Assembly (NCBI GenBank): GCA_001661245.1
Contig: KV454018.1
Location: 693,569-742,311 of the forward strand
DNA: 48,743 bases
Direction of reading: 5' to 3'
From: Pachysolen tannophilus NRRL Y-2460
Taxonomy: Eukaryota
In this document: in pieces, positions 8,745 through 43,033 of the stretch
Layout: each line of letters opens with the position of its first letter
How positions within the stretch are numbered: the first letter of the stretch is position 1
The notes under the pieces: generated by a model
The model's database searches: none
What the model was told of the DNA's origin: nothing
Seen by the model: the letters and a program-made list of their open reading frames with translations, nothing else
Translations under genes and position numbers: made by a program

Positions 8745-11700
8745 ATGTCATCGAGTCCAAACTCCCCAAGAAGATCGATATCAAGACCTTCGTTATCCAC
8801 ACTTTCATCTTCATCACCCAATAGAAGCAAACTCGTTGATATTGATAGGGATGTGGCTTTGAATTCTAGTTCATCTTCCTCGCTGTCTCTGTTGTTGGGG
8901 ACGTCTTCAAAAGCGGTTATATCTGGTACTACTACCACTGTTAGGAATGGTTATCATCCTGATGCCTCATTTCGCAATAAAAAATTGAACTCATTACAGA
9001 AAAATATAAGGAAAAATAGGAGGACTAGTTCTCATAGTTTAGGAGTGATGGATAGTTTAACTAGTGTTAAGCCAGTTTCTAAAATCAAAGTGCCGTCACA
9101 TGATCATCATGATGAGCAGCACTCTTTAACAAAGAGACCGAGATTGATTTCAGAGGATGATAATGATAATGATAATTATGACATCAAGAGAACAAGAAAT
9201 TTAAAAGATGAAATAGATATCATAAATAAAGATGATGATGATAATATTTATAATGATTATGGGAAAAGCACTGTATCTTTGAGGATAAAGTTAAGAAAGA
9301 TACGATTATTGAATCAAGATTTTATAAAACCAATAGAAAACTGCTCGATTTCAATGTTGATATATGAAAATCTGGATTTTGAATTTGTCAAAGAAACTAA
9401 ATCACATTTAAAATCTTTAAAATTTTTGAAGATGAATTTACTGAAAGATTTAGATAAAATATATTTTCTGATCTATAACAAATCATTAAACAGAGATTTT
9501 GTAATGATCTTTAATAGGCCAATTGCAATAGATAGATTGGAATTGGAACAAATTTTAGATGAGAAATTACAATTTGAAGTTTTACCTGAAGTTAATAGCA
9601 TATGGGTATATGGGAATTCGGATATTGAAAATTTTAAAAATTTTAAAATTCTTATTAATGAATATGGGATCAAGTATTATGATAACGATATAAATGAATT
9701 AACTGAAAAATTTGCAACACGGAAAAAGTTGACTGTACCTTCATCTTCGTTTTATGGAAGTTCTAAAATTCACAAGCATAATAACACCACTAATGATAAC
9801 GACAATGATGACTTTTCTGCATTAAATCTCGATGAAAAATCACATGAATCTTCTATAATACCATTGAATGATTCTGCTCCACGTAATACGAGAAGTTACA
9901 TTACAAGAACAAAGCTGTTGTCTCTACCACCAGAACAGTTAAATACAAGAGAAACTGCAGAAGTTATACAAGAAGAAACACAACATGAAAATATCCTGGA
10001 AAATGATCAGATAAGATTTGTGCCCACTTTAAATTATAAATTTCAAATAGACAATAAGCATTTTAGCATTACACACTCAGATTTTAAGTGTTTATATAAT
10101 AATTGTTGGATAAATGATTCCATCATTGATTTTTTCTTAAAGTATGACCTGGAAAATTCAATTATAAAAGAAAAAAAGTTTAATAAAGATGATATATTAG
10201 TTTTAAATTCTTTTTTCTTTATGAAACTAAATCAAAATCAAAATGATTTTTATAATAACCTCAAATCATGGTTTAAAGATGATAAATTGTTTCGCTATAA
10301 ATATATAATAATTCCTATTAATCAAGATTTGCACTGGTACTGTTGCGTGATTGCTAATTTATCGATGTTATTGAATTTTGATAAAGATGGAATTTCAAAA
10401 GATTCAACTTTTAATGGAATTGAAAAAGAAGGAGAAGAACAAGTGAATACAAATGAAATTCGTAAAAGCAAAGATTCCAATAAAAGCAATAATAATATAA
10501 AAGATTTTTTCACCGCTCAAGTAGAGAATGAGGACTCAGAATTATCGCAACTAATGGTAAATAAGCCAAGATTTTCTGAAATATTAGTATTAGACTCTTT
10601 ACAAATGGATCATAAATCCATTAAGAAACCTTTAGTGGAATTTTTCATTGGATATGCTAAGGATAAATACGATATTAATGTATCTGCAGATAGATTCAAA
10701 TTATATCATTGCCATGTTCCTAAGCAACAAAATTTCAATGATTGTGGAATTCACGTAATTTATAATATTTCGAAATTCTTAGAGGAGAATGAATTATTTG
10801 TTTCAAACTGGAAAAAATCAGGTATGAAAATGAAAACTTTGAAATTATTCAAAAGTAAAGAGAGGGAACTTTTAAGATTTGAGTTACGACAGAAATTGAT
10901 TAAATTGTTACAGGAACAAGAAAAGGTAAAGGGAAATCCAAACTATGCAAAAATCGGTACTGTAACTATTGGTGAATATAAAAAATTGCGAAGGGAAGGA
11001 GGGTCTGATGAAGATAATAATGACGATGCCATATATGATGGAGATGATACCAAAGATAATGACGATGAAGGTGATGACGGATTCGAAATAATTGGCTCGA
11101 ACCAGTTAGAAAAGGAAAAAGAAGAAGCCAATAAAAAACTGCTTTTGGCTGTCGAAGAAACTGAAGCATCATCGATGTTGCAAAATCAACAAATGGAAGA
11201 AGCAGATAATCGTTCATTTCCGGCAACGCAAGAGACATCTGAATTACCGCAACAAGAAGACAAGACTGTTCCAGTGGATAATCAGCAAGAGAATCAGGAT
11301 CTGATAAGCGGGAATCCTTTATTCAAGTTTGCGACTCCCAACAAGAAAAGAATTGATCTTTCAAGTTTTGAATTTACAGAAAAAGATTTGGCATCCCCTT
11401 TTTTCACGAAGAGCATTAATGAGGTTGATCACAATGATGAAAAGACAAAATCTTCACTTGAAGCAGGTACTAGTAAGACTCGTGCATATGGAAATGAAAG
11501 AAATGTAAGCAGTGATCTGAGTGTTGATTCTGCGCTTGTTGATGATAATTACAATTATGGTGATGATAAAAGAGGTTCAACTAATAAATTTTATGACATT
11601 CAAAAAGAAACTGCTGAAATTAGTAACTCATCAAACGAAACTAGTGATAAATCTTCTGTTGAAGTTTACGCTACCCAATCTGATGGTGAACATAACAGTT

Positions 11701-13073
11701 TAGATGTGGGCCATGATGTCAATGAAGAAGAGACCATTTTGTCTGAACCGATTCAAGCTAATACAAATGATAGTCATTCATCAAAAGTTGGGAATTTTAA
11801 ACCTAATACATCGAATAGTATTTCCGATGGGGTCGATCTGATAGCTCTGAAATTAAAAGATTCTTCGATTTCCAAACGTTCAATTAATACCAGAGTCTTG
11901 TCACTAAATAAAGAAGAACAGATTGATATCAATAAGATATTAAATATTGTTAAAAATTTCCCTCCTAATGATAGCAATTTTCCTATTAGTGATAATTCTA
12001 ATTATGGAATGAAGTACATTGATGCCAAAGGAGTCAAGTTTGATGAACTAACGACAAGATTTTTTAATGAATTTAAACCTCTGTCCGAATTTGAAACTAA
12101 TTTCATCATACAAATCCTTGATTATTTATTCTTATTTGAAAGGCCATTTTCGTTAAAGAGGAAATATGGATTTGGGTTTAAAAAATTAAAATTGATTAAA
12201 AAGTTATATTTATTCTTGCAGAATGTTTCACTTGATGATGATAGGTTAGAAGTTGGTCTAATGAATTTTGTCAATGATTATAATAGTGAATTGAATTCGA
12301 TACCCAAGATTCAGGTTTCTGATGAGGAAGAAGATGAAGGGCATATCAATGGCGATGCAGATAGCGATACTGAGGATCCTGTTGATGATCCTGCTGATGA
12401 TCCTGTTGAGAATCATGCTGAGGATCATGCCCATGATCCTGCTGATGATCATGATGAGGATCCTGCCGAGGATTATTCTGAAGATCACCATCAGGAACCT
12501 CCGGCGGAAATAATTGATCTCAGTTCTTCCGTGAGCGACATGAGAAATAACTACAAGGCCCCAACTCGTTCGAATTCTGAGGAGCTGGAAAGTTCCACTA
12601 GAGATTTGCAAAAAATAGTTGTTATTGAAGATAGCAGTGATGAAGTAGATACTAAGGGGAAAAACAGACTGTTATTGAAACTCAACCATTTTTTAAATAA
12701 CAATCGGTACGAGGATGATGATTTCAAGATATTAGGAGAGAGGAAAAATAACACCAGGCATATTAAATCAACACCTCCAAAGACTCCGATTCAAGATGAT
12801 GAGTTTGCTGTTGAAGATGTCACAGTACGAAGAAAAGCAGTGTCTTCATCACCAGGTAATGACAACAGCAGAAAATTAATTCAACAAACGCTTCCTCATT
12901 CTTTTAGAAAATCCCAATCATCTTTCCCCAATGATGGATTTCAACATCACAGAAAGAGAAGTTCGAACACAAACAGTAGTGGAAGTAGCAGAAGTAATAG
13001 TAATAGTAACAATACTACCGAAGATGCTGAAAGAAGGATGAAAATAGTTAGCTACAAGAGAAGGAAAAACTAA
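8745..13073 (+). CDS. ULP2: SUMO isopeptidase (C48 family), Ulp2-like
   Basis: Central catalytic domain (WINDSIIDFF, IPINQDLHWY, LDSL, PKQQNFNDCGIHV) flanked by long low-complexity arms; basic NLS-like C-terminus. Confidence 0.85.
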   Translation: MSSSPNSPRRSISRPSLSTLSSSSPNRSKLVDIDRDVALNSSSSSSLSLLLGTSSKAVISGTTTTVRNGYHPDASFRNKKLNSLQKNIRKNRRTSSHSLGVMDSLTSVKPVSKIKVPSHDHHDEQHSLTKRPRLISEDDNDNDNYDIKRTRNLKDEIDIINKDDDDNIYNDYGKSTVSLRIKLRKIRLLNQDFIKPIENCSISMLIYENLDFEFVKETKSHLKSLKFLKMNLLKDLDKIYFLIYNKSLNRDFVMIFNRPIAIDRLELEQILDEKLQFEVLPEVNSIWVYGNSDIENFKNFKILINEYGIKYYDNDINELTEKFATRKKLTVPSSSFYGSSKIHKHNNTTNDNDNDDFSALNLDEKSHESSIIPLNDSAPRNTRSYITRTKLLSLPPEQLNTRETAEVIQEETQHENILENDQIRFVPTLNYKFQIDNKHFSITHSDFKCLYNNCWINDSIIDFFLKYDLENSIIKEKKFNKDDILVLNSFFFMKLNQNQNDFYNNLKSWFKDDKLFRYKYIIIPINQDLHWYCCVIANLSMLLNFDKDGISKDSTFNGIEKEGEEQVNTNEIRKSKDSNKSNNNIKDFFTAQVENEDSELSQLMVNKPRFSEILVLDSLQMDHKSIKKPLVEFFIGYAKDKYDINVSADRFKLYHCHVPKQQNFNDCGIHVIYNISKFLEENELFVSNWKKSGMKMKTLKLFKSKERELLRFELRQKLIKLLQEQEKVKGNPNYAKIGTVTIGEYKKLRREGGSDEDNNDDAIYDGDDTKDNDDEGDDGFEIIGSNQLEKEKEEANKKLLLAVEETEASSMLQNQQMEEADNRSFPATQETSELPQQEDKTVPVDNQQENQDLISGNPLFKFATPNKKRIDLSSFEFTEKDLASPFFTKSINEVDHNDEKTKSSLEAGTSKTRAYGNERNVSSDLSVDSALVDDNYNYGDDKRGSTNKFYDIQKETAEISNSSNETSDKSSVEVYATQSDGEHNSLDVGHDVNEEETILSEPIQANTNDSHSSKVGNFKPNTSNSISDGVDLIALKLKDSSISKRSINTRVLSLNKEEQIDINKILNIVKNFPPNDSNFPISDNSNYGMKYIDAKGVKFDELTTRFFNEFKPLSEFETNFIIQILDYLFLFERPFSLKRKYGFGFKKLKLIKKLYLFLQNVSLDDDRLEVGLMNFVNDYNSELNSIPKIQVSDEEEDEGHINGDADSDTEDPVDDPADDPVENHAEDHAHDPADDHDEDPAEDYSEDHHQEPPAEIIDLSSSVSDMRNNYKAPTRSNSEELESSTRDLQKIVVIEDSSDEVDTKGKNRLLLKLNHFLNNNRYEDDDFKILGERKNNTRHIKSTPPKTPIQDDEFAVEDVTVRRKAVSSSPGNDNSRKLIQQTLPHSFRKSQSSFPNDGFQHHRKRSSNTNSSGSSRSNSNSNNTTEDAERRMKIVSYKRRKN
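12372..12495 (+). repeat. Coding 12-bp minisatellite (GATCCTG(C/T)TGA(T/G)-like) encoding DP(A/V)(D/E) and DHAE units
   Basis: gaggatcctgtt gatgatcctgct gatgatcctgtt gagaatcatgct gaggatcatgcc catgatcctgct..., within ULP2. Confidence 0.8.
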
Positions 13074-13145
13074 AACCGTATATAGTTAATTATTTCAAGT
13101 ATAACAAGGCAAGAAATAAATTAGATTAGATTAAATCAAATTAAA

Positions 13146-13355
13146 AATTGTGCAACCCCTGGTAAGGAGAATACGTCATTGAATTCAAAAGTAATTGGAT
13201 TCCACGCATTTTCCAGCTAGAGGACATCATTTCACAACATGCAATCACATTGGAAATCTTCTCTCGAACTTCGTTGTAGAGGATGGCAATCTAGTCTATT
13301 CAAATCAAAAATCTGAGTCATTACACATCCTACAATAAATACGAGTTCTGAAAGT
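13146..13355 (-). ncRNA. Candidate box H/ACA snoRNA (about 205-215 nt)
   Basis: On the minus strand: hairpin 1 (GAACU/AGUUC, UUGUAG/CUACAA, GGAUG/CAUCC); H box AGAGAA at 13264-13259; an inserted hairpin (AUUUC-CAAUGUG/CAUGUUG-GAAAU); a 3' hairpin (CCUCU/AGGGG, GGAAAAUGCGU/ACGUAUUCUCC); ACA at 13151-13149 plus 3 nt. Upstream TATATAAATA at 13425-13416. The 5' end is approximate. Confidence 0.75.
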
Positions 13356-13589
13356 ACAATAGAGAAATCAAAAAAATATCAAAAGAGTTTTGTGAAAAAA
13401 ATTGGGAATCTTTGCTATTTATATAGTGATGGTGATTGATGTGCTTTTTTTGAAAAAAAATTTTTTAATACTTTTAAAGCAGGGTAAAACCAAACAAGAC
13501 CAAAAGAATAATCCAAATATATATCATATAGATTTATAGATATATATATATAGAGATATATAGATATATGATTGAAGATAGATGATATT

Positions 13590-14225
13590 ATGTTGCGGGT
13601 ATTAATTGTAATTTTTGTCTTTTTAGTATCATCTAGTCTTGGATTTGAGATTAACGGTAGAATTGAATTGCCGCTCTTAGCCACTGGTGAGCCAGACTAT
13701 ACAATTACTTCAAGAACAAGAATAGAACTACTTCCATTGAGTAAATACAATGATAACAATAATAAAAAAATCTTACATGGGAGTGTTTTGAAAGATGGGA
13801 GTTTCCATATACCAGATGTGAATGATTTGGGCTCTTATCAATTAGTTATCTCTAGTTTAGATTATCATTTTTTGAAAAATAGGTTTAAGATTGATATTGG
13901 TGATAAAACTATCAGCGCTTACGAATTCCCCATTGGATCCGAATATACAACAACTATAAAAACTTCATACCCAATATTAATTACCAAAGATTCTTTAATA
14001 AGAAGAAATTATATCGAACAAAGATCAAAATCCATTATCGAATCAATAAGCAGACCAATCTCCATCATCTTAAATAATCGTATATATCTAGCATGTGCAG
14101 TATTAATTCTATTAACAGCGCTATTACCAACCTTGATTAACTATCTAGATCCAGAGTTTAATGAAAAAGTCAAGGATCTAAACACGCAACAGCAATCACT
14201 TCCTCCTCCAAACAAATCAGATTAG
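13590..14225 (+). CDS. SOP4: ER membrane protein of the Sop4/EMC7 (DUF2012) family
   Basis: First in-frame ATG at 13590 opens a signal peptide. Motifs INGRI...SRTRIEL, DGSFHI and GSYQLVISSLDYHF; single TM ending in LDPE. It neighbours a SLY41-like gene, as SOP4 does YJL193W in S. cerevisiae. Confidence 0.72.
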   Translation: MLRVLIVIFVFLVSSSLGFEINGRIELPLLATGEPDYTITSRTRIELLPLSKYNDNNNKKILHGSVLKDGSFHIPDVNDLGSYQLVISSLDYHFLKNRFKIDIGDKTISAYEFPIGSEYTTTIKTSYPILITKDSLIRRNYIEQRSKSIIESISRPISIILNNRIYLACAVLILLTALLPTLINYLDPEFNEKVKDLNTQQQSLPPPNKSD

Positions 14226-19930: not shown

Positions 19931-21451
19931 TTATAATAATAAAACACTCGATGAAATGAATACCAAAGCAGCGATAAGAGAAAGTGGTTGACTTTTCTTA
20001 GCTGCAACGTTTTGATATAAGTCACCATCCATGTACCCATGTTTTGAATGATAGAAACTTCCAAAAAGACCATGATGATCTGCTTTGTTTGAAGTTGAGT
20101 TTAATTTAGTATTTTGTGTAAATTTTGAACTTTTTTCATTCTTTTTAGTGGTCAAAGAGTCTTGAGATTTTTTGTTTTTTGCATCTTTATTATTTGAATC
20201 ATCTTTCGAACTTTGCAAATTTATTCTCCTTGAACTTGGACCATGGGAGATTAAACTTGGGTTTGTATCAGATTTGTTGCCCCAAGCGATCATAATATAT
20301 CTCTCCTCTTCCGGTTCATCATAGTAGCTTCCTTCTTCGTAGTTTTTAATTTCATCTTGATGATATTTCCAAGGAAATTGAAAATTTTCTGCATCAAATT
20401 GGTCGTTTTGTGTCTTCGGTGATACAATTTCTTTATCATCATCTTCTTCTCCGAATTTGATGTAAATAATCTTGTGATAATCATCTTCTTCGTCATCACA
20501 GTCCTTATGATTTCTCCATGGGAAAATAAACGATTGAGCCTGAGCATCTTGTTGTAATTCTTTAGCTAGCTGGTCTTTATCAGTTTCATTATCAGCACCA
20601 AACGCAATAAAGATAATACGGCCATCTTCATCAAATACTGATTTCTCCTCGTCATCATGTCCGGTTAACTTTTCTTCACCTCTCCTAATTAAATCATGCA
20701 ACCAGTCCAAGAAGCATCCCTGAGCAGTAACAAGGTCGTCAGAAGATGGAAGGAATGTCTCGCCAACTTCTTTTGGGTTAGTGTCGTTAACGTCAAATTT
20801 AACATAGATTATTTTCCTTGGCCAATTATCTTCATAATCATGCTTCTTCTTCCAAGGAAATAGCTGAGCCAGTGGAATTTGATTATCATTATCCTGTAAT
20901 TGTCTATTTGGGGCTCTTGAATTTGGATTTGAATCAACAGTGTTTTCACGGTCGTTACCTATAATTTCAAATCCGTTATTCAATCCTGATCCCAAGTTAG
21001 TATCCTTTTGGGGCTTATGGCTCAACTTTTGATCAGGAGAAACAAATCCTGGAGCCTCAGTGGAAATAACAAGAAGCTCAGTTTTGGTAACCTTGTTTGG
21101 TTTTGGGGTAGTTTCAATTTTTTCGGTAGAGGTTAAAGTAACTGTCTTTTCGTAGGTTCTGGTCGTTGTAGAAGTTATTGTCTCAGTAATTTCCAGTGCT
21201 GGTGCTCCAACGTTGACAAAAGTAGAGGAAACTTCAAACATAGTCTTCGTGACAAAATCAGTTTCTTCAACTACTTGGGTCTTGTTACCAGCAGTCGTTG
21301 TAGCCGATGCTGACGAAGAGGTAGTAGTTCCAGTTGGAATTTCTTGAACAGACGTTATCTCACTGTCGTTGTTTCTTTTCCATATAGCACTTGCAAATGA
21401 AAATTGAGACAAAAGGAAAAACGTGATAACTGCCTGAATAAAGAACTTCAT
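19931..21451 (-). CDS. Orphan secreted, probably GPI-anchored protein with four internal repeats (protein A)
   Basis: Signal peptide then WKR (Kex2-type site); Ser/Thr-rich region; acidic repeats; hydrophobic C-terminus PLSLIAALVFISSSVLLL. Confidence 0.8.
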   Translation of the reverse strand: MKFFIQAVITFFLLSQFSFASAIWKRNNDSEITSVQEIPTGTTTSSSASATTTAGNKTQVVEETDFVTKTMFEVSSTFVNVGAPALEITETITSTTTRTYEKTVTLTSTEKIETTPKPNKVTKTELLVISTEAPGFVSPDQKLSHKPQKDTNLGSGLNNGFEIIGNDRENTVDSNPNSRAPNRQLQDNDNQIPLAQLFPWKKKHDYEDNWPRKIIYVKFDVNDTNPKEVGETFLPSSDDLVTAQGCFLDWLHDLIRRGEEKLTGHDDEEKSVFDEDGRIIFIAFGADNETDKDQLAKELQQDAQAQSFIFPWRNHKDCDDEEDDYHKIIYIKFGEEDDDKEIVSPKTQNDQFDAENFQFPWKYHQDEIKNYEEGSYYDEPEEERYIMIAWGNKSDTNPSLISHGPSSRRINLQSSKDDSNNKDAKNKKSQDSLTTKKNEKSSKFTQNTKLNSTSNKADHHGLFGSFYHSKHGYMDGDLYQNVAAKKSQPLSLIAALVFISSSVLLL

Positions 21452-25449: not shown

Positions 25450-28400
25450 TTAGCTCTTTGAGCTAGAGCTTTCTTCAAGATATCCACCTTGCTTACACAA
25501 GTTATGAAAAATGCTGTCCTTATTGGCTAATAAGTTAGCTGGTGTGTCAAACTCTGCAACACGGCCTTTTTCCAAAACTATCACTCTGTCGCTATCCAAG
25601 ACCGTTTCCAATCTATGTGCAATGGTTAATATTGTTTTATCTTTGAATTCACTTCTAATAGTTTGTTGAAGAATCTTATCTGTTTGCACATCAACAGCGG
25701 CTGTAGCTTCATCCAATATTAATAATTTGGAAGGGTTCAATAATGCTCTTGCAAGACACATCAATTGTCTTTGTCCTACAGACAAGTTACCACCACCCTC
25801 TGAAACTTTAACATCTAAGGCAGATTCTAAGACTTCATAATCCTTTTCGATGCTATCTTGTGCCATTGATAAAACATGGTCTTTTAAATGTGATAGTTCC
25901 AAAACTCTCCATAGTTCTTCTTCTGGATATTGACCAAATGGGTCGAGGTTTTGTCTAATAGTACCTTCTAGTGCCTGAGAATCCTGAGGAATAATACTTA
26001 ACTTATGTCTTAAATCATATAAACCAATCTCGCTAATATCGATGTCATCAATTTCAATATTTCCCTCTGTAGCTTCAATCAATCTGAAAATGGCCATTGT
26101 TAAAGTTGATTTACCAGCTCCTGTTCTACCTACAATACCAATTTTTTCTTTTGATTTAATATCCAAGTTGATATCATTTAAAACAGGATCCAAATTGGCT
26201 CTGTATTTAGTGGAATAATGATTGAATTTAACTCTTCCTTGAGATGGCCAGAAAGGTGGTGGTCTGTGACCTTCGACAATTGGTAGGGCTTCAGACTTCA
26301 ACTTTGAGTACTCCAATACTCTTTCGACACAAACGATATTGGATTCAACGTCAACTATACTTTTAACAAGCCAATTCAAAGAATCTGTGATTTGTAAAGC
26401 ATAACTCATGACTAAACCGACCAGCCCTGAAGATAAAGGTTTATTTGTTCCAATAGTAAGAAGAGAAAGAACAGAAGCCGCAAAAATAACTATAGAACCA
26501 ATTAATTGTAACCTTGAAGCTAACCATCTATTGGTAGTTCTGAATGTGTAGGTTGCTCTCATATTAATGTCAATATTAGCACTATTCATAAAGTTAAATC
26601 TTTCTACTTGTCTGTAAGCCCTAATCGTGTCGCAACCATTTAAACTCTCTTGAAGATGAGCAAAAATGGGACTAAGTGTTATACTAGCTATTCTTTTTAA
26701 TTGTCTTGAAGTTTCAAGATAATATTTCTGATAGTATAAATAACATATCGACAAGAAAATCATAATGATAATGAATATTGGCATAGAATAAATGATAACA
26801 AGACCCATGAACAAGGTTCTTACCGAAGCACCAAAAACACCTGAAAACATTCTAGGAAGCATTTCATCAATTTTGTTGATATCATTTGAGAATCTATTCA
26901 TAATTCTTCCAATTGGTGTGGTTTCAAAGAATGACATTGGCGACCTCATTACTGCTCTAGCCATATTATCATGCAATATTTTAGAAGCTCTGATGCAACA
27001 CAATAACCACAAGACTAATGCTCTAATGAAAAGTGTGAAGTCTGATGACATACCCAAGAGGGCATAAATACCAACAAATTTGAAAACATTATCGTTAAAC
27101 CCATTTGCAACATTACTCTCAGACCAGATTTTTAACCAAAAACTACTAGCAACAGATAATGAGGTTGTTAGAAAAGTTAAGAAGATAAGCAAGTTTACAC
27201 CAAAGTATCCACATGATTTTGCATACGACATATATACTGACCATTGAACTTTTCCCTTTTGCATTTTTTCAACCTCTTGTGCTGATCTTCTACTTTGATT
27301 GGTGTTACTTTCCAGCGGGTTTCTTTGATACGAATCCATACTTGCTCTTCTTAAAGATTGATGACTAAGAGTGACAGTTAAAGGTATCTCTTCAAGCAGA
27401 ATTGGAACTGAACTACCACTGCGATCATATTCAGGACCATTATATAGCTCTATCTCCTTCACAACGTCTTCGAATTCATCGTCTTCTTTTTTCAAGTTTT
27501 CATCATCTGCTTCTCCTGTTGCATCTTGTACCGTAGTGGTGGCAGATAATTTCGTCTCGCTATCAGATTCTACGACTTCGTTTAATGTTTCTTCTAAATC
27601 ATGATCTTGTGAATCATCCCGAGAAAAATCAGTGATCAATGTGTACAATGCAGATTTATTGCTCATAACTTGATCGTATGATCCACTCTCAACTATCTTT
27701 CCATCTGATAACAGTACAATACTTTTAGCATGTTTTAAGACAGAAATAGAATTAGTAGCTAATATGATAGTCTTTGATGAAAGTAATCCAGTTCCGCTAA
27801 ATAGTTGATCAACAATGTTTTGTCCGACATGAGCATCTACAGCAGATAACACATCATCTAAAAGATATACATCAGCTCTTGCGTAAACGGTTCGAGCTAA
27901 AGAAATTCTGGCCTTTTGCCCTCCACTCAATGAAATACCTTTCTCGCCAACTATTGTGGCATCACCATCAGGTAGAGTCTTTAAATCATCAAGTAACTGA
28001 CAACTTTCAATAGTCCTTTGGTAAAAATCTGGTTCATACTTGGTACCAAACAATATATTTGCTTTAACAGAGGCATTCATGACCCATGGGACTTGTGAAC
28101 AGTATGCTACAGACCCCAGAACTTTAACTTCCACTGGTCTCGTATTATTAGCTGGAACATATACTAATTTTCCCAATAAAGCCTGAATAAAAGAGGACTT
28201 ACCACTCCCAACTTTTCCAACAATACAAGATAGTTCGCCTTTTCTGGCAGTGAAATTTATACCCGTCAACGCAGCTTTAGGTGATGATAACTCACTTTCA
28301 TCATTATCATAATAATAGCCATGTCCATCTACAAAAGGTTTTGACCATAGAAAAGTTGCGTTTGAAACTTTAACAGAAACTTCACCCAAATGATGGACTT

Positions 28401-30279
28401 TTGGTAATGGCTTGAAAAGTTCAGGATCTAGCTCATCGCTTGTTAAAAATGCTGAAATTCTTCTCAATGCCACCGAGGTTTCTATCAAAGCTGTGACCAC
28501 ATTTGGAACATCGAAAAATGGTTCTGATATCAAATTAAATAAAGACAAAGCTGGAAATACAAGATCTGGAGTTAATGGATTACTTGAAGTAAACGCAAAT
28601 GCAGAAAAAATTGCACATGAAATGAAAAATGGAATAGACGACCAAATAAAATGAACCAAACCGCTATATGCCCCTATTTTTTCCATAATCTTTAGTTCTT
28701 TATTATTTCTTATATCTTCCAAATTCAGAAGCATTGGATTCTCCCAAGAATATAGCTTAATACTTTTGATAGACGTCAATATCTCATTTGTTGCCTTAGT
28801 TCTAGCATCCTTGTAGGTCATCTGGAGCTTATACAAATCTTTCAAAGTTCTTACTAAGAAAGTATTCACAGGAATAACTATCAAGATAATAATAACAGAG
28901 CTGAATATGGATTTCCCTAATAACAGGTACAAAGAAATCAAAGCTAAAAATAATTTTGTTGGAGCTGAAACTAATGTTTGAAATTGCATAAACAATTCTT
29001 GGAGTCTAGTGACATCGACAGAGACTAAGTTTACAATATCTCCAGTGTTATTTTTCTTCTGAGATTCAGTAGATAGCCTTAAAGCTTTTTGATAGACTAG
29101 AGACATTAAACCAGACTTAGCACGTAATCCAGCTTCAAAAGTCAACAATGCAAAATAGTTGAAAACTATAATTTTCAACATCGAAATAACAAACATAAGT
29201 AATGAGATACCAAGCCCAAGAACTACTGGTCTTTGATGACCAGGTACAAAAAATGAAATTAAAAGACCTAAGAACTGTGGTTGAATAACAGATAAGGCCC
29301 CATCAACAAAATTAAGAAATAAAGAGATGATTAAAATTTTGAAAACAGTTTTAAACACTGCCATAGATAAGGAAGGGTTAATGGGGTTTTTCCTTAATTC
29401 ATGTTCCCAGTTTTCGGATAATTTAGCCACTGCCTCGTCTGTGTATTGAAACCCTATAGGATAAGGTATATCTTCCTCTGTAATACCTTCTTCTGTAGTT
29501 GCTTTAACCATAAACTTGTTTAAGTACGAGAATGTAATTTCTGATATTATATTTGGAACTTCTAAATTAAGTTCACTTACTCTATAATAATGTATCAATT
29601 GCCTAGAAGGTGACCAACGAGCATATTCCATATAGAGTATGAATATGGAATTTATCAACAGTAAAAACTCAATTCCAGTCATCAATTTAGAATTTCCAAC
29701 AAGTTTGTGATCAGAGAAAATTTGTTGGATCATCACCACACAATTTAAAAAAATATGTAAAGGCCAATATAATAACAAACTAGCACTTGCTGTAACTCTA
29801 CTAACAACTTCAACAGAATGTAAAGGTAAAAAAACGAAAAGTATTGTTAAAAAAGTTATCCCATAACCTATACTTTTAGTATCTGTGAATGACAAATTTT
29901 GGTCTCCATGATGTAAATGAGACGTTATTATAAAGTATAATAGGCCTTGTAAAAAGACTGAAAACATCCTTATCCAATGATACCCTCCTGTATTCCTCAA
30001 CCCTAACCCTCCAAAATTATTCTTATAGAACAAAGATTGAATTAATTGGAAAACCCCTAACGATGCAAAAGAAAGCGACAAGATGGTAAATAGCAGAGAT
30101 ATAAAACAAGGACTAAGTGCATTACTGTCTTGTGAAACCAAAGGATACCATGATCCACATGAATTGTTCCAATTCATATCCGAATGAATGTTGACCCCAG
30201 CAACATGAATATCTCTACTTTGAATAAAGAAATATTGATGATTCTCAATATTAGATTTCGCATACTCTCCAATGCTCAT
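25450..30279 (-). CDS. YCF1: Vacuolar ABCC/MRP transporter, Ycf1/Mlt1-like (copy 1)
   Basis: TMD0-TMD1-NBD1-TMD2-NBD2 layout; GKVGSGKSS, LSGGQKAR, DDVLSAVDAHVG, LRRAS linker, GRTGAGKS, LSVGQRQL and DEATAAVD. First in-frame ATG is 30279. Orthology to YCF1 versus close paralogues is not resolved. Confidence 0.88.
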   Translation of the reverse strand: MSIGEYAKSNIENHQYFFIQSRDIHVAGVNIHSDMNWNNSCGSWYPLVSQDSNALSPCFISLLFTILSLSFASLGVFQLIQSLFYKNNFGGLGLRNTGGYHWIRMFSVFLQGLLYFIITSHLHHGDQNLSFTDTKSIGYGITFLTILFVFLPLHSVEVVSRVTASASLLLYWPLHIFLNCVVMIQQIFSDHKLVGNSKLMTGIEFLLLINSIFILYMEYARWSPSRQLIHYYRVSELNLEVPNIISEITFSYLNKFMVKATTEEGITEEDIPYPIGFQYTDEAVAKLSENWEHELRKNPINPSLSMAVFKTVFKILIISLFLNFVDGALSVIQPQFLGLLISFFVPGHQRPVVLGLGISLLMFVISMLKIIVFNYFALLTFEAGLRAKSGLMSLVYQKALRLSTESQKKNNTGDIVNLVSVDVTRLQELFMQFQTLVSAPTKLFLALISLYLLLGKSIFSSVIIILIVIPVNTFLVRTLKDLYKLQMTYKDARTKATNEILTSIKSIKLYSWENPMLLNLEDIRNNKELKIMEKIGAYSGLVHFIWSSIPFFISCAIFSAFAFTSSNPLTPDLVFPALSLFNLISEPFFDVPNVVTALIETSVALRRISAFLTSDELDPELFKPLPKVHHLGEVSVKVSNATFLWSKPFVDGHGYYYDNDESELSSPKAALTGINFTARKGELSCIVGKVGSGKSSFIQALLGKLVYVPANNTRPVEVKVLGSVAYCSQVPWVMNASVKANILFGTKYEPDFYQRTIESCQLLDDLKTLPDGDATIVGEKGISLSGGQKARISLARTVYARADVYLLDDVLSAVDAHVGQNIVDQLFSGTGLLSSKTIILATNSISVLKHAKSIVLLSDGKIVESGSYDQVMSNKSALYTLITDFSRDDSQDHDLEETLNEVVESDSETKLSATTTVQDATGEADDENLKKEDDEFEDVVKEIELYNGPEYDRSGSSVPILLEEIPLTVTLSHQSLRRASMDSYQRNPLESNTNQSRRSAQEVEKMQKGKVQWSVYMSYAKSCGYFGVNLLIFLTFLTTSLSVASSFWLKIWSESNVANGFNDNVFKFVGIYALLGMSSDFTLFIRALVLWLLCCIRASKILHDNMARAVMRSPMSFFETTPIGRIMNRFSNDINKIDEMLPRMFSGVFGASVRTLFMGLVIIYSMPIFIIIMIFLSICYLYYQKYYLETSRQLKRIASITLSPIFAHLQESLNGCDTIRAYRQVERFNFMNSANIDINMRATYTFRTTNRWLASRLQLIGSIVIFAASVLSLLTIGTNKPLSSGLVGLVMSYALQITDSLNWLVKSIVDVESNIVCVERVLEYSKLKSEALPIVEGHRPPPFWPSQGRVKFNHYSTKYRANLDPVLNDINLDIKSKEKIGIVGRTGAGKSTLTMAIFRLIEATEGNIEIDDIDISEIGLYDLRHKLSIIPQDSQALEGTIRQNLDPFGQYPEEELWRVLELSHLKDHVLSMAQDSIEKDYEVLESALDVKVSEGGGNLSVGQRQLMCLARALLNPSKLLILDEATAAVDVQTDKILQQTIRSEFKDKTILTIAHRLETVLDSDRVIVLEKGRVAEFDTPANLLANKDSIFHNLCKQGGYLEESSSSKS

Positions 30280-31093
30280 TATCGATCCTCCAAACCGAAA
30301 ATTGAATAATTGAAAATATGAAAAATTTGAAAAATCAATAATACCAACCAACTTCTCTCTTTATCTATATATATAAATATACATAGATAAAAGTAAAAGC
30401 AGGAAAACCAATTACACAACAACCACTAGTATTACTTTTACTTTATCTAAATCACTAATATGCTCCTGATAACATTTGATCTTTCCAAAAACGAAAATAT
30501 ATATAGTTGCAAGTAATAAGTAGTAGTTGTATCTTTTGAATATTATCTATCACTTGCTGTTGCCAGCCTGCTTAGTTTACGGCTCCCTGTAGCTTCATTT
30601 CCTGACAACTTGCATATAAGATGCATAACCATACATGAAGTATTAATTAATTTCTTCAAGTTCCCGTTCAAATAAGTTTAGATTTGAGCGATATGCCACA
30701 GGATTGGAGTGTTAGTTAGAGTTATAGTTAGTTAGTTGGTGTGTTCTTTTGGAAATTTTGCTTAGCAGCTATTCACCAATTTATATTTTGAAGAAACTCC
30801 GGTGAAAATTTTGACTGCAAAAGTACGTTCTTGGTTATCTCCGGTTCTCTTTGATTTTCCAAATTGATCGACTATATAATGGGAAGAAAGACGACTGATT
30901 CAAGTTGATACTTCAAAAGGTATTATAATAATAATATTTACGTTCAAAAAATTTTCTTAATATTAGTTTATAGTATCTGTAGTGCTACGGTGTATGGGAA
31001 AGTTGGAATGACCCATTGCATATCAAAAATATGTATTTACATGCGAACGAATAAATAATAATAATAAATGGAAAAAAAAAACATTATATAGGG

Positions 31094-34000
31094 CTAAATG
31101 TCAGTTGTACTTGTAGTAGAGACGTTTTGGACTTTATCGGTGTTACCGTGCTTGAGGTAGCCTCCCTGGTTACACAAGCTGTAAAAAATGCTATCTTTAT
31201 TGGCTAATAGGTTTGTTGGTGTATCGAACTCTGCAACATGTCCTTTTTCCAAAACTACTACTCTGTCGCTATCCAAGACGGTTTCCAATCTATGTGCAAT
31301 GGTTAATATTGTTTTATCTTTGAATTCACTTCTAATAGTTTGTTGAAGAATCTTGTCTGTTTGTACATCAACAGCAGCGGTAGCTTCATCCAATATTAAT
31401 ACTTTGGAAGGGTTCAATAATGCTCTTGCAAGACACATCAATTGTCTTTGTCCTACGGACAAGTTACCACCACCTTCGGAGATTTTAACTTCCAAAGCTG
31501 AATCCAATATTTCTTCGCCTTTCCCCTTGCTTTCCTCAGCCATTGATAAGACATGGGTTTTCAAATGTGATAGTTCTAAAACTCTCCATAATTCTTCATC
31601 AGAATGTTGTCCAAGTGGATCCAAGTTTTGTCTCATGGTGCCTTCTATGGCTTGAGAATCTTGAGGAATAATACTCAACTTATGTCTCAAGTCATAAAGG
31701 CCAATCTCACTTGTGTTGATGTTATCAATTTCAATATGACCTTCTGTGGCTTCAATTAATCTGAAAATAGCCATTGCTAAAGTCGATTTACCAGCACCTG
31801 TTCTTCCTACAATACCAATTTTTTCGCTCGGTTGAATATCCAAATTGATATCATTTAAAACAGGATCCAAATTGGCTCTGTATTTAGTGGAATAATGATC
31901 AAATTTAACGCGTCCTTCAGATGGCCAGTATGCTGGTGGCCTATGATTCTCAATAATTTCTGAAGCTTCAGATTTTAATTTGGAGTATTCCAAAATTCTT
32001 TCGACACAAACAATATTGGATTCAACATCAACAGTACTTCTAACAACCCAATTCAAAGAGTCTGTAACTTGCAAAGCATAACTCATTAGTAAACCAACCA
32101 TACCTGAAGTTAAAGGAGTAGACGTTGTAAGTGTATAAAGAGCTAACAAAGATGCGGAAAAAATAATCAATGATCCAATAAATTGTAATCTAGCAGCTAA
32201 CCATCTATTGGAAGATCGAAGAGTATGCATAGCTCTCATATTAAAATCAATATTGGCGCTATTCAAGAAATTAAATCTGTCTTCTTGTCTATATGCTCTT
32301 ATGGTATCAGATCCGTTTAAACTTTCTTGAAGATGTGCAAAAATAGGACTCACTGTGATACTAGATATCCTCTTTAATTGTCTTGAAGTTGCAACATAAA
32401 ACCTTTGGTAATAAATGTACCATAATGACAAAGCAACCATAACAAGAAGGAAAACAGGCATTGAATAAGCAATGACACCAACTGTGAAAATGGTTCTGAC
32501 ACATGATCCAAAGAAACCTGAAAAAGTTCTAGGTAACATTTCGTCTACTTTATTAACATCATTTGAAAATCTGTTCATAATCCGACCAATTGGAGTTGTT
32601 TCAAAAAAAGACATAGGAGCTCTTAAAACAGACTTTGCCATGTTATCATGAAGTAACCTCGAACCCCTTATAGAACATAAAAAGAACATGACAGCTGTTC
32701 TCAGAAGAATACAAATATCAGAAGCAATACCTAATCCAGCATATATGGCAACAAACATAAGGACAGACTTGTTGGACCCACTCATGGCATTCTTCTCTGC
32801 CCAGTATTTCAACCAATAATTATCTGCCACAGATAATGCAGTCGTCAAGACAATCAAGGTTAAAAATAAACACACACCAAAATAACCACAGGATTTTGCA
32901 TAAGTAACATAAATAGACCATTGAACTTTTCCCTTTTCAGCTTTTTCAGCTTCTTGAGCAGTTCTTTTATTAGAAGTTTCATTCAAATCAATCAATGGCT
33001 TTTTCTTATATGAAGCCATACTTGATCTTCTCAATGATTGATGAGTTATTGTAGTAGTCAATGCTAATCCTTCTGAGTCAAGCTGATTAGTTCCAACTTC
33101 TGCCGTTTCAAACAGCATGAGATTTTCAGATTTATCATCGTCTATATCGATTATCAGGTCAGTTGAATCTGATTCCGCCATTTCTGTAGGACTCTCTTCT
33201 TCTGAGTGTAGTTCTTTGGCTTCTTGACGACCAAACTCGTCAATTAAAGCATATAATGCAGATTTCTTACTCATCACCAGTTTATACGAACCTCTTTCAA
33301 TTATTTCCCCACCGGACAACAAAACAATATTTTTGGAATGCTTCAAAACAGAAACTGAGTTTGTAGCTAATATAATCGTTTTTGTAGCCAATAGACCAGT
33401 TTCACTTAAGACTTGATCGACAATATTTTTTCCTACATGCAGGTCAACGGCAGATAATATATCATCTAATAAATATACATCTGCTCTAGCGTAAACAGCA
33501 CGAGCTAAACTAACTCTTGCCTTTTGACCTCCACTCAATGAAATCCCCTTTTCTCCAACTAAAGTATCATCACCATCTGGCAAAATATCTATATCATCCA
33601 ACAACTGGCAGCTCTCTATTGTCCTCTGATAAAAATCTTCATCAAACTTGCTACCGCACAAAATGTTATCCTTAAGAGATGCATTCATAATCCACGCCAC
33701 TTGAGAGCAATATGCAACAGAACCATGTATTTCAGTAACCATAGGTTCTGTAGGCACTGCTGGAATAGCCACTAATTCGCCTAATAATGCTTTTATAAAT
33801 GATGACTTACCAGCACCTACTCTTCCAACAATACAGGTTAATTGTCCTTTCCGTGCAGTGAAATTCACATCCTTCAAAGCAACTTTAGGTGTTGAAATTT
33901 CGTTTTCTTCATCGTAATTCTTCTTATCTGTTTTAGGTCTCGACCAAAGAAATGTAATATTTGATATTTTCACTGAAACGTCACCTAAATGATTAACTTT

Positions 34001-35890
34001 CGGTAATTCTTTAAAAACTTCAGGATTAAGCTCATCACATAGTAAGAAAGAGGTTATTCTACCTAAAGCAACTCCTGTCTCTATCAAAGAAGTAACAACG
34101 GCTGGAATAGCAAAGAACGGTTCAGAAAGTAAATTGAACAAAGATAAAGCGGGGAAAACAATATCAGGAGTCAATGGAGTATTTGAAATAAAGGCAAATA
34201 CTGAAAAAATAGAACATGAAATGAAAAATGGAATAGAAGACCATACAAATTGAACGGTAGCAGAAAGCATTCCAATTTTTTTCAAATTTTTCAACTCTTT
34301 ATTGTTTCTAATATCTTCCAATTTCAGTAACATAGGTTTTTCCCAACTGTACAACTTGATACTTTTAATGGAAGTCAATATCTCATTCATAGTTTTCGTT
34401 CTCATATCCTTATATTTCATCTGCTGCTTGTGGAGTCCTCTTAAAGTTTTAATCATTACAACATTAACGGGGACAATTAGTAAAACAATAATAGCAGCAC
34501 TAAATACAGACTTCCCTAATAATGAGTACAATGAAATTAAACATAAAACTAATTGTGTTGGTGCAGAAACTAAAATCTGAAGCTGGAAAAACATTTCTTG
34601 AACTCTCCCAACATCAACAGACATTAAATTAACAATATCACCTGTACTTCTCTCCTGTTTTGACTCTGCAGACAAGTGTAATGCTTTTTGATAAACTAAT
34701 GACATCAATCCTGATTTTGCTCTTATTCCAGATTCAAAGATTAACATAAGGTACTGGTTGAAAAATGCAGTCTGTAAAATTGATACAGCAAACATAGCAA
34801 GGGAAACACCAAAACCAATGATCAAAGGTTGATCATTATCTTTAACGAAAAATGAAATCAAAATTCTTAAAAACTGAGGTTGAACAACACTTAAAAATGA
34901 ATTTGAAACATCCAATGTTATAGAAAAAATTACTATAAGGAAAACAGACTTAAATAAAGCCCATGCCAAAGAAGGTTTTTCCGGGTTTTTATCTAATTGA
35001 TGTTTCCAATTTTTGAGTAAAATTTCAGAAGAATCTTTTGTAAATTGAACACCTGTTGGAATTGGTATATCATCTTCGGTAATACCTTCTTCAGTAACAC
35101 CTTTGGCCATAAATTCATTTAAATTAGAAAAAGTAATCAATGAAATAATGTTTGGAACTTTTAGTTTCAATCCATTTTCCTTATAGTATTCAATTAATTC
35201 TTCAGTTGGAGACCAATTCAAAAATTCCAAGACAAAAATTGAAATAGAATTGAATAAAAGCAAATATTCAACCCCACTAATCACTGTTGAATCCCCTAAA
35301 ATTTTATGCTTTGAGAAAACTTGCTGAATAACAACCGCCAAATTACAAAAAATGTGGAATGGCCAGAATAATAATAAACTAGCGCTTTGAACTACGCTGG
35401 TAGTAACTTCTATAGCATGTAATGGTAAGAATATTAGCAAAATTACCAACGCAGTAAGCCCAAACCCTGCAACTTTGACATCTGTTAACTTCAGCCCTTC
35501 TTCACTCTGGAGATTTTCAAAAACTACAATCAAATATAATATACTTTGTAATAAAACTGAATTTAACCTAATCCAATGATAAATACCGCAACTTTTCAAT
35601 TGACTCAAATTACCAAATTTTTGCCTGGAACTAAGTGATTGAAGTAACTGAAATCCAGCAAAAACTCCAAAGACAACCGAGATAATTGCATATATCAAAG
35701 AAACAAAACATGGATTAAGAGCATTGCTTGTCCTTGAAACCAAAGGATACCATGAACCACAAGAATTATTTAAACCAGTGACACCATACAGCTCAGAACT
35801 TGAAGAAAAAACAAAAGTATCATCCAATACCAGTAACAGTAATAGTTTCTGATACCCTGGATTATCTCCCATCAAAACTTCATCAACCAT
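31094..35890 (-). CDS. YCF1: Vacuolar ABCC/MRP transporter, Ycf1/Mlt1-like (copy 2, tandem paralogue)
   Basis: Same architecture and motifs as copy 1, colinear throughout, including the N-terminal NNSCGSWYPLVS. Confidence 0.88.
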   Translation of the reverse strand: MVDEVLMGDNPGYQKLLLLLVLDDTFVFSSSSELYGVTGLNNSCGSWYPLVSRTSNALNPCFVSLIYAIISVVFGVFAGFQLLQSLSSRQKFGNLSQLKSCGIYHWIRLNSVLLQSILYLIVVFENLQSEEGLKLTDVKVAGFGLTALVILLIFLPLHAIEVTTSVVQSASLLLFWPFHIFCNLAVVIQQVFSKHKILGDSTVISGVEYLLLFNSISIFVLEFLNWSPTEELIEYYKENGLKLKVPNIISLITFSNLNEFMAKGVTEEGITEDDIPIPTGVQFTKDSSEILLKNWKHQLDKNPEKPSLAWALFKSVFLIVIFSITLDVSNSFLSVVQPQFLRILISFFVKDNDQPLIIGFGVSLAMFAVSILQTAFFNQYLMLIFESGIRAKSGLMSLVYQKALHLSAESKQERSTGDIVNLMSVDVGRVQEMFFQLQILVSAPTQLVLCLISLYSLLGKSVFSAAIIVLLIVPVNVVMIKTLRGLHKQQMKYKDMRTKTMNEILTSIKSIKLYSWEKPMLLKLEDIRNNKELKNLKKIGMLSATVQFVWSSIPFFISCSIFSVFAFISNTPLTPDIVFPALSLFNLLSEPFFAIPAVVTSLIETGVALGRITSFLLCDELNPEVFKELPKVNHLGDVSVKISNITFLWSRPKTDKKNYDEENEISTPKVALKDVNFTARKGQLTCIVGRVGAGKSSFIKALLGELVAIPAVPTEPMVTEIHGSVAYCSQVAWIMNASLKDNILCGSKFDEDFYQRTIESCQLLDDIDILPDGDDTLVGEKGISLSGGQKARVSLARAVYARADVYLLDDILSAVDLHVGKNIVDQVLSETGLLATKTIILATNSVSVLKHSKNIVLLSGGEIIERGSYKLVMSKKSALYALIDEFGRQEAKELHSEEESPTEMAESDSTDLIIDIDDDKSENLMLFETAEVGTNQLDSEGLALTTTITHQSLRRSSMASYKKKPLIDLNETSNKRTAQEAEKAEKGKVQWSIYVTYAKSCGYFGVCLFLTLIVLTTALSVADNYWLKYWAEKNAMSGSNKSVLMFVAIYAGLGIASDICILLRTAVMFFLCSIRGSRLLHDNMAKSVLRAPMSFFETTPIGRIMNRFSNDVNKVDEMLPRTFSGFFGSCVRTIFTVGVIAYSMPVFLLVMVALSLWYIYYQRFYVATSRQLKRISSITVSPIFAHLQESLNGSDTIRAYRQEDRFNFLNSANIDFNMRAMHTLRSSNRWLAARLQFIGSLIIFSASLLALYTLTTSTPLTSGMVGLLMSYALQVTDSLNWVVRSTVDVESNIVCVERILEYSKLKSEASEIIENHRPPAYWPSEGRVKFDHYSTKYRANLDPVLNDINLDIQPSEKIGIVGRTGAGKSTLAMAIFRLIEATEGHIEIDNINTSEIGLYDLRHKLSIIPQDSQAIEGTMRQNLDPLGQHSDEELWRVLELSHLKTHVLSMAEESKGKGEEILDSALEVKISEGGGNLSVGQRQLMCLARALLNPSKVLILDEATAAVDVQTDKILQQTIRSEFKDKTILTIAHRLETVLDSDRVVVLEKGHVAEFDTPTNLLANKDSIFYSLCNQGGYLKHGNTDKVQNVSTTSTTDI

Positions 35891-36424: not shown

Positions 36425-37615
36425 TTAGAAATAGGCAAAGAAACCGGTAATGGCAATCGAACCAACTGTAAGATAGAAATTTTCTGAAAAAGCAGCTTTA
36501 TTTGCACTTGATTCAAGATCCTGGCTTGTTGAATTGACTCTTGTAATATTGGTTGAAGTAGCGTTGGAAAATTTGAATTGTCTTGGTTCTAATTTTACTT
36601 TTGGAGCAACTTCGTACAATTTTTGTTTTACAAAAGGAATGGCTTCTGAAGGATCATTTGAAATCAAATTTGAAGGTAAAACTATCTTATCTGATTCCAA
36701 GATATTTTCTTTTTTTGCCAATTTCTGTTGTTCTTCTTCTTCGGCAGTTAAACCAGAAAATACATGTCTGTCATTATAAGTTTCGTCACCTTCTCTTCTT
36801 CTTCTTCTATAAGTACCATGCTCTCCACATTCAGCAGCTTCTTCTTCGCTGTGATGATGGTGATGGTCAGATTCGTTGCAATCATCTTCGTCGTGGTTAT
36901 AAGCATCACCATTGTTTAAGTCAAAATAATCTGGGATAGTCTTACCAAATTTGGATTCGGTAGATTTGGAACCTTCATCTGTGGTACTTTCACCACAGTC
37001 ACTTTCATTCTCCCCAATTATTGCTTCTGTGGCCTCTTTAACTGGATTCAAGAATTTATCTAAAAATGATGGCCATTTAACGTTAGCTGAAGCAGTTACT
37101 TGATTTTCTTGTAAACCTCCTGCTTTGACAATTTGACCTTGTACTTGTGCTTGTACTTCTGCTTCTGCTTGTGCTTGTGGTGCAGCTTCTTCAACTTCTG
37201 ATTGTGCCTCAAATTGTTCTTGATCTTGATCTTGAACTTCTGGTTGAACTTGTTTTTGAGCTAAAAATTCATTTGAATCTTCAGAAACAGAAGAAAAATC
37301 CTGATCATTTGACTTTTCAGAAACTAAATTTTCTTCTTCCTGAGTACCTTGAGTTTCCTGTGATTGTGGAATAAAATCAACTTCATTTGAAGATGCTTCT
37401 ACATTTAAAACATCTTGTTCCTCTTCCCTCTTCATATTGAGCGCAACAAAAGGATTTCCAGCAGATAAGACTTGTTGTTTAGTTCCCCAAAACCTTTTTT
37501 CTGGGGAAAAACCCTCAAAATTCTCAACATCAGAATTAATAGCAGCCGCACTTGAGAAACTTAAATTCTCAGTACCTATCAAAATAATTGGAGCTAAAAT
37601 TTTGAAAAGTTTCAT
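36425..37615 (-). CDS. Orphan secreted acidic, probably GPI-anchored protein (protein B), 396 aa
   Basis: ATG 37615 opens a signal-peptide-like segment. Two KR sites, E/Q-rich body, His5 and Arg5 tracts, N-glycosylation sequons, and tail SSANKAAF...LTVGSIAITGFFAYF. Confidence 0.78.
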   Translation of the reverse strand: MKLFKILAPIILIGTENLSFSSAAAINSDVENFEGFSPEKRFWGTKQQVLSAGNPFVALNMKREEEQDVLNVEASSNEVDFIPQSQETQGTQEEENLVSEKSNDQDFSSVSEDSNEFLAQKQVQPEVQDQDQEQFEAQSEVEEAAPQAQAEAEVQAQVQGQIVKAGGLQENQVTASANVKWPSFLDKFLNPVKEATEAIIGENESDCGESTTDEGSKSTESKFGKTIPDYFDLNNGDAYNHDEDDCNESDHHHHHSEEEAAECGEHGTYRRRRREGDETYNDRHVFSGLTAEEEEQQKLAKKENILESDKIVLPSNLISNDPSEAIPFVKQKLYEVAPKVKLEPRQFKFSNATSTNITRVNSTSQDLESSANKAAFSENFYLTVGSIAITGFFAYF

Positions 37616-37787
37616 CGTAGAAGTTAATGCTTTTAAAAAAAAAAGATTATTATCGATGTCAAATCTCAAACTAAAAAGTTGCAATCTTCTGAATAAGCAA
37701 AAAAAAAATTTCTAAAAGAATTCAAATCATTTATAGAAATATCTTGAGCATTTCAATAGCCAAATGATCCAACTATTATATCAACTC

Positions 37788-37843
37788 TGTGCGGTTTGAG
37801 CCATAGAACACAAAATCAAAAGTAGCGTGCGGCATGCGGCTGA
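37788..37843 (+). promoter_or_regulatory. TGTGCGGTT, AGAACACAAAA and GTGCGGCATGCGGCTGA upstream of protein B
   Basis: Motifs read at 37788-37796, 37805-37815 and 37827-37843. Confidence 0.5.
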
Positions 37844-38101
37844 AATTATTTTATGCAGAAACTTACATCAGTTGAAAAGTTTGGTTAACAAACCAAAATA
37901 TCCCACAAAACAAAACATCTACTTTCTATTGTGGTTCCCTATCAGAGTTTCATTATTTTTCAATTTTCTTGATATTAGTTTTAATTAATTTTATTTAAAT
38001 CCCAAAAAAAAAAAAAAAAAAAAAAACATAAAATAATGCTAAATATTTTTCAGGAAATAAAAAGGGTTACGTCTATATCGTATGTCTACAAAACTTTAAT
38101 T

Positions 38102-38692: not shown

Positions 38693-38870
38693 AATTGGTT
38701 AATGTACTTTTCTTTTCTAAAAGTTTTTTTAAATATTCAAAGACTGTTTTGAAAAAAAACTTATAGTTGATTTGAGTCTTTTGAGTATGGTTTAGCTGCA
38801 CATTATTCCGTCAGAAAGGACAACGACCTGGTTGTTACTCTTATTTTGGCTTCAAGGTTTTCTCGTTATC

Positions 38871-38898
38871 TTACACAAAAGCCTCTATGTGCGGCTCA
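38871..38898 (+). promoter_or_regulatory. TTACACAAAA plus TGTGCGGCTCA upstream of protein C
   Basis: The 11-mer TGTGCGGCTCA at 38888-38898 is identical to 21742-21752; MSE-like site at 38873-38880. Confidence 0.52.
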
Positions 38899-39092
38899 TG
38901 AATTATCAGATCTCATTTTGAAGATATATGGTGCTAATTTAAAGTCATTTTGCTACAAAATCGCTTTTATATATATATATATATATATATATTAGACTAT
39001 AGTGAACAAAAAAAAAAAGAAAAAAGAGTATTTGAATAGACTAGCTTTCGTTCAAAAGTACTCTTAAAAATAAAGACTCTTTTTATGTTAAT

Positions 39093-42959: not shown

Positions 42960-43033
42960 GACTTCGTGGCCAAGTTGGTTAAGGCGTGTGACTGTTAATC
43001 ACAAGATCGCTGGTTCGACTCCAGCCGTTGTCG
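42960..43033 (+). tRNA. tRNA-Asn(GTT), intronless, 74 nt
   Basis: A box TGGCCAAGTTGG; anticodon arm TGTGA-CTGTTAA-TCACA (GTT at 42994-42996); T arm GCTGG-TTCGACT-CCAGC; discriminator G. Confidence 0.95.

Follow-up and report, generated by a model that had tools for sequence, protein, structure and literature searches.

Box H/ACA RNAs act together with the protein partners Cbf5, Nop10, Nhp2 and Gar1. In Saccharomyces cerevisiae, the H/ACA RNA snR189 (Rfam RF01250), about 190 nucleotides (nt) long, is the guide for pseudouridine (Psi) 2735 of 25S rRNA and for Psi466 of 18S rRNA, the latter being a listed snR189 site (PMC8307265). A survey of 147 species assigned the 25S site to snR189 in the Saccharomycetaceae, whereas outside this family the RNA was mostly predicted to direct modification of '18S-633' through its hairpin 2 (Canzler et al. 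2018, PMC5824354). The survey numbers positions by alignment column; because its 18S-614 equals yeast position 562, '18S-633' equals S. cerevisiae 581 by our conversion, given no gap between the two (PMC5824354). U581 as a target of snR189 outside the Saccharomycetaceae is thus already predicted in 2018, and the supplements to that survey may already contain the gene and target described below. In Neurospora crassa, the snR189 homologue Nc ACA4 was cloned as a 206-nt intergenic RNA directed at 18S Psi463, and the account that describes it assigns no 3′ target (Liu et al. 2009, PMC2780460). For H/ACA pockets in general, a minimum of 8 guide–substrate pairs has been reported, with several extra unpaired nucleotides accepted and the 5′-most uridine modified (De Zoysa et al. 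2018, PMC6049503).

Here we describe an snR189-family gene in a 48,743-nt stretch of DNA (the window) from Pachysolen tannophilus, an AT-rich budding yeast. On the minus strand, between about 13368 and 13146, all the named elements of a box H/ACA RNA are present in sequence and fold. Our reading, to which we give a probability of about 0.75, is that the locus encodes a stand-alone snR189 orthologue, probably transcribed by RNA polymerase II, that would serve as a double guide for 18S positions 466 and 581. The original prediction had proposed a three-hairpin H/ACA snoRNA on the minus strand, which our analysis supports, and had found it unassignable to a named snR family, implying novelty; that part is not supported, as the 5′ hairpin, whose pocket had been overlooked, is the snR189 hairpin for 18S Psi466.

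The gene (13146–13368, minus strand) is delimited by the Rfam snR189 match and the fold. Its 5′ end probably lies between about 13355 and 13368, the Rfam alignment setting the homologous end near 13368 rather than 13355, and its 3′ end is predicted 3 nt past the ACA, at 13146. The 5′ hairpin (13266–13348) comprises a lower stem, in which 13348–13341 pair with 13274–13266, and an upper stem (13331–13280). These enclose pocket 1, with a 5′ strand at 13332–13341 and a 3′ strand, CUAC, at 13276–13279, beginning 15 nt before the H box. The H box AGAGAA (13259–13264), an ANANNA motif that aligns to the snR189 H box, is partly paired with 13354–13350 in the naked fold. It is followed by an extra middle hairpin that contains neither box nor pocket (13229–13257; mean pair probability 0.95–0.99). 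The 3′ hairpin (13156–13223) consists of a 5-pair lower stem, in which 13223–13219 pair with 13160–13156 (probability 0.95), and an upper stem (13214–13166), and between them lies pocket 2, formed by a 5′ strand, AGCUGG (13213–13218), and a 3′ strand, UUACC (13161–13165), that begins 14 nt before the ACA. The ACA box (13151–13149) and the 3-nt tail AUU complete the RNA (13146–13151). The H box, the pocket strands and the ACA–AUU end all lie where they had originally been placed. The RNA thus shows the box H/ACA succession of hairpin, ANANNA hinge, hairpin and ACA 3 nt from the predicted 3′ end, with one extra hairpin in the hinge, and both pockets have the bipartite form, at a distance of 14–16 nt from their box and with 8 or more target pairs (14 pairs at 15 nt for pocket 1; for pocket 2, 9 or 11 at 14 nt).

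Folding distinguishes the two strands. The minus strand reaches −52.3 kcal/mol (z −2.11; 5 of 200 shuffles equally good) and the plus strand −40.1 kcal/mol (z −0.71; 42 of 200). G–U pairs had been said to fit the minus strand only; their counts are alike on the two strands (9 of 71 pairs on the minus, 8 of 71 on the plus), and it is the fold energies that separate them. The G+C fraction is 0.37 inside the snoRNA and drops to 0.22 and 0.19 in the sequence on either side.

The snoRNA gene is convergent with a Ulp-family SUMO protease gene (8745–13073, plus strand; PF02902) and divergent from an SOP4/EMC7-like gene (13590–14225, plus strand; PF17081 and PF09430), with which it has a common upstream region of about 220 bp. 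Only 72 nt separate the SUMO-protease stop codon from the snoRNA 3′ end (13073–13146) and the two ends face each other, so that the snoRNA precursor probably overlaps the SUMO-protease 3′ untranslated region in antisense. A TATA-like element, TATATAAAT (13417–13425, minus strand), lies about 50–65 nt upstream of the snoRNA. The TATA box of its own that had been attributed to the gene is present as a word at 13425–13417, but TATA-like words abound, 335 of them across the window, and the element is weak evidence alone. Elsewhere in the window, two similar ABC-transporter open reading frames (ORFs) of about 1,600 amino acids, which we take to be ABCC/Ycf1-like, are arranged head to head at 25450–35890, and a tRNA gene with the anticodon GUU (Asn; 62.4 bits) is located at 42960–43033. 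Several ORFs at 36425–40190 and 19931–21451 begin like signal peptides, continue through acidic stretches of low complexity and end in mostly hydrophobic sequence; by eye, they look like secreted or GPI-anchored wall proteins.

When the entire window was searched against Rfam at the gathering threshold, tRNA alone passed. With permissive filters, the best of three matches was snR189 (RF01250; 13237–13368; 25.1 bits, E 0.11), a score half of the family cut-off of 50, and the alignment, which covers both pocket 1 strands and the H box, is essentially limited to the 5′ hairpin. The Rfam scan proposed with the original prediction therefore does name a family, albeit below its cut-off. Because the 3′ half of the model follows the S. 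cerevisiae type, the low score counts against formal RF01250 membership and not against orthology as understood more broadly in PMC5824354. The P. tannophilus genome encodes the complex I 49 kDa subunit (411 bits). To our knowledge, complex I is absent from the Saccharomycetaceae, and this subunit thus places the host, indirectly, outside that family. An RF01250 search of the same genome, in which 40 of 1,300 candidates were scored, returned no match; since it missed even this locus, it says nothing on paralogues. BLAST returned this locus alone and no second copy, and the pocket-1 pattern gave 10 matches in the genome against 17 in a reversed control.

We took the host rDNA from the genome and scanned all uridines of the 18S, 5.8S and LSU pieces as targets. 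In that assembly, the 3′ part (818064–819422) of the LSU rRNA gene at C1:816275–819644 (L006) is inverted with respect to the 5′ part, and additional incomplete 18S pieces are found at C1:814886–815703 and on C10; these are probably assembly artefacts. Pocket 1 pairs best with U467 of the host 18S through 4 + 10 Watson–Crick pairs, its 3′ strand binding 5′ of the target and its 5′ strand 3′ of it, with the H box 15 nt away. This uridine ranks first among all those scanned, and its energy score of −13.0 was reached in none of 40 shuffled rRNA sets. From the motifs that anchor the conversion, we take the host 18S numbering to run one ahead of that of S. cerevisiae here, so that host U467 is S. 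cerevisiae Psi466. The 5′ pocket is accordingly complementary to 18S around U466, as in snR189, and the window RNA shares with S. cerevisiae snR189 a near-identical 5′ pocket, the H-box spacing and the 18S-466 target. It differs in that the 3′ pocket fits 18S U581 rather than 25S U2735, in its extra middle hairpin, in its greater length (about 215–223 nt) and in its score under the Rfam cut-off. As the 5′ pocket identifies the family, the snoRNA is not an orphan, and we consider it very probable that it is an snR189 orthologue.

A pattern scan of metagenomes returned nine loci. Two of them, L013 and L014, fit the Rfam snR189 consensus, L010 is snR189-like, and the remaining six were judged by eye to be chance matches. 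Covariation, suggested earlier as a check, is apparent when the window RNA is aligned with L013 and L010 in RNAalifold: 5 of the 16 predicted pairs of the 5′ hairpin are changed on both sides in this small sample of three sequences. L013, which is of the S. cerevisiae type, lacks the middle hairpin, and L010 has an extra hairpin. The U581-type 3′ hairpin was found in none of the nine loci. In L010 (326–565), from a metagenome contig, the conserved 18S-466 hairpin and the extra hairpin are followed by a last hairpin that fits neither 25S-2735 nor 18S-581; it is possibly a third state of the snR189 hairpin, or the 3′ end of L010 may lie elsewhere.

The 3′ hairpin carries the putative second guide. 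UUACC before the ACA and AGCUGG opposite had been described as complementary to the small-subunit sequence GGUAA-UU-CCAGCU, and both strands and that 18S sequence are found, UUACC pairing with the GGUAA 5′ of host U582, which corresponds to S. cerevisiae U581. In a strict test, designed after the target was known, the folded hairpin was held fixed and only Watson–Crick pairs were counted. Host U582 was the sole full match, whether the GG of AGCUGG was counted as open to the target (11 of 11 pairs; 0 of 300 shuffles) or as closed (9 of 9; 2 of 300), in agreement with the claim that the pocket points at U581. The S. cerevisiae 25S-2735 guide words are absent from the window RNA, though the 25S site exists in the host genome; the 3′ pocket is therefore not of the Saccharomycetaceae type, whereas the control L013 does contain these words and the scan of rRNA uridines ranked 25S-2735 joint first for it. 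The 3′ pocket of the window RNA corresponds instead to the HACA_4 type, in which this pocket is predicted to target alignment position 18S-633, assuming no gap between 562 and 581, and the conserved first hairpin and second-hairpin target described for snR189/HACA_4 outside the Saccharomycetaceae show no difference from the window RNA (PMC5824354). Across the host genome, a pattern for the pocket-2 words gave 7 matches, this locus among them, against 3 in a control. The corresponding pattern for a separate 25S U2735 guide gave 6 matches (L020–L025) against 2 in its control and identified no such guide. Over-prediction by snoGPS in Candida has been warned of (PMC5033589).

Pocket 2 has an atypical geometry, as had been pointed out: its GG can pair either with 18S or with the snoRNA's own CC at 13167–13166. 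This ambiguity is real, yet it falls inside the pocket flexibility that has been tested (PMC6049503). In the closed form, the GG–CC pairs of the upper stem would stay intact, the pocket would form 5 + 4 pairs with the target UUCC unpaired, and the 5′-most U would be modified; in the opened form, 5 + 6 pairs would leave two target nucleotides unpaired. Both forms select U581, and no new mechanism has to be invoked for the unusual pocket. In N. crassa Nc ACA4, inspected by eye in the published sequence, the 5′ pocket is the same as in the window RNA, and the 3′ hairpin likewise carries UGGA and, before the ACA, CUUACC, with a GG again able to pair with its own 3′ strand (PMC2780460). With the 581 site it would pair as about 7 + 3, where the window RNA has 5 + 6, and its left arm seems GG-dependent, which would favour opening in that RNA, on one sequence judged by eye.

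The question of whether the 581 site is modified in other organisms bears on the activity of this pocket. U581 had been named as missing from the mapped S. cerevisiae pseudouridines, and it is indeed absent from the tables consulted for that yeast, that of PMC8307265 included. In tomato 18S, mass spectrometry (MS) placed Um581 and Psi584 in the fragment (Um)AA-Psi-UCCAG, each at 100% (Cottilli et al. 2022, PMC9483110); Psi584 is the same nucleotide as U581 and has the same neighbouring Um, a comparison confined to the target site. Nanopore reads of two Chaetomium species, whose positions we matched by uridine pattern, give Psi calls at the 581 equivalent in 2,376 of 6,491 reads (36.6%) for C. 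thermophilum 18S-578 and in 60,468 of 294,434 (20.5%) for C. globosum 18S-604, where the authors' cut-off is 20% (PMC12723226). These calls are by Nanopore only, at a position 3 nt from a Um, and the next U has 34–41% U-to-C miscalls. At C. thermophilum 18S-463, Psi was called in 4,838 of 5,476 reads (88%) (PMC12723226). In the same data, C. thermophilum 18S-585 and C. globosum 611 (S. cerevisiae 18S-588) show 33–40% Psi calls; this U is next to the N. crassa position given as Cm584 (PMC2780460), and the signal would stem either from a further pseudouridine in helix 18 or from a Nanopore artefact caused by the methyl group. We also considered a dual guide for U581 and U582 (S. cerevisiae numbering) and rejected it, as the tomato fragment has the first U alone modified (PMC9483110) and in Chaetomium the second U is called as Psi in only 2.7% and 1.7% (PMC12723226).

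The alternative that survives best, although we regard it as improbable, is an snR189 orthologue that guides Psi466 alone, its 3′ pocket being a relic, or else silenced by a GG that stays bound in the upper stem or by a helix 18 that cannot be reached. In the fold, the GG pairs with the snoRNA's own CC at a probability of 0.98–0.99, and a rough model puts the cost of opening it at about 5.8 kcal/mol, but the closed form still offers 9 pairs, over the tested minimum of 8 (PMC6049503). That Nc ACA4 is assigned 18S-463 alone would fit an inactive second pocket, as would the fission yeast Schizosaccharomyces pombe, for which the published listing has Psi at the 466 equivalent and only Um, with no Psi, in the fragment holding the 581 equivalent (PMC4605285); set against these are the guide words held in common with N. 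crassa (PMC2780460) and the Psi signal at the 581 equivalent in Chaetomium (PMC12723226). The snR189-like gene L010, which carries neither of the two second guides, also speaks against the double-guide reading. More generally, complementarity need not mean activity on native rRNA, on which predicted guides often fail, and a weak pocket can be helped by a strong pocket of the same RNA (Deryusheva and Gall, bioRxiv 2021.07.15.452550); such help could apply to the 466 and 581 sites, which are 115 nt apart.

A permissive energy scan left pocket 2 with a tie between host U582 and U157, at −13.9 each and with 4 of 40 shuffles equal, and therefore does not by itself establish the target. U157 (UGGUAA-U-U-CUAGAG), in place of or besides U581, would have 6 + 6 Watson–Crick pairs at 14 nt from the ACA. 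This pairing requires a weak stem to replace the 5-pair lower stem described above, and with the hairpin intact, as in the strict test, U157 reaches only 7 pairs. Its equivalent, C. thermophilum 155, is unmodified (13 of 1,595 reads; PMC12723226), and the listings for S. pombe (PMC4605285) and S. cerevisiae (PMC8307265) do not include U157 as Psi, making it a very unlikely target. Equally remote is a non-expressed relic, or a distinct or chimeric snoRNA whose kinship with snR189 is limited to the 5′ hairpin. The window RNA, L013 and L010 do align poorly over their 3′ halves, but both the 5′ pocket and the 3′ pocket words recur in Nc ACA4, an RNA assigned to snR189 (PMC2780460), BLAST and the pocket-1 pattern reveal no second copy in the host genome, and boxes, spacings and stems are intact.

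In the double-guide reading that we prefer, the snoRNA would be bound to Cbf5, Nop10, Nhp2 and Gar1, the 5′ pocket would place 18S U466 and the 3′ pocket 18S U581, in helix 18, for isomerization to pseudouridine, and the middle hairpin would be an insertion without a guide role. Expression, protein binding and both modifications are accordingly what this reading predicts for P. tannophilus. A more far-reaching version is tentative, and we hold it to be rather unlikely: pocket 2 would be a natural, conserved strand-exchange pocket, whose GG swaps from its own pyrimidines to the helix 18 CC on binding, with the dual pairing kept from this yeast to Neurospora; guidance of 18S-466 and 18S-581 would be what snR189 did ancestrally in the ascomycetes, and the switch of the hairpin to 25S-2735 would have cost the Saccharomycetaceae a pseudouridine of the decoding centre. 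If that version were true, the gene expressed in S. cerevisiae would restore Psi581, and how this pseudouridine affects decoding could be tested directly.

This is no new kind of RNA or chemistry: the family is known, its second target was already predicted and the site has already been measured in tomato by MS. The annotation fills a gap missed by the Rfam cut-off, and the gene joins three published facts, namely the 2018 second-target prediction, the MS-measured plant Psi584 and the Chaetomium Nanopore signals; our literature search around snR189, partial in its coverage, found no paper joining them. Within the decoding centre, U581 belongs to helix 18 (PMC8351944, which gives helix 18 without the position), 3 nt from Um578 (PMC8307265). 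The second arm of this snR189 orthologue most likely directs, judging from its complementarity, a pseudouridine near the decoding centre that S. cerevisiae is without, and because of the location of U581 the gene would be a ready-made guide with which to add this pseudouridine to S. cerevisiae ribosomes and measure translation accuracy.
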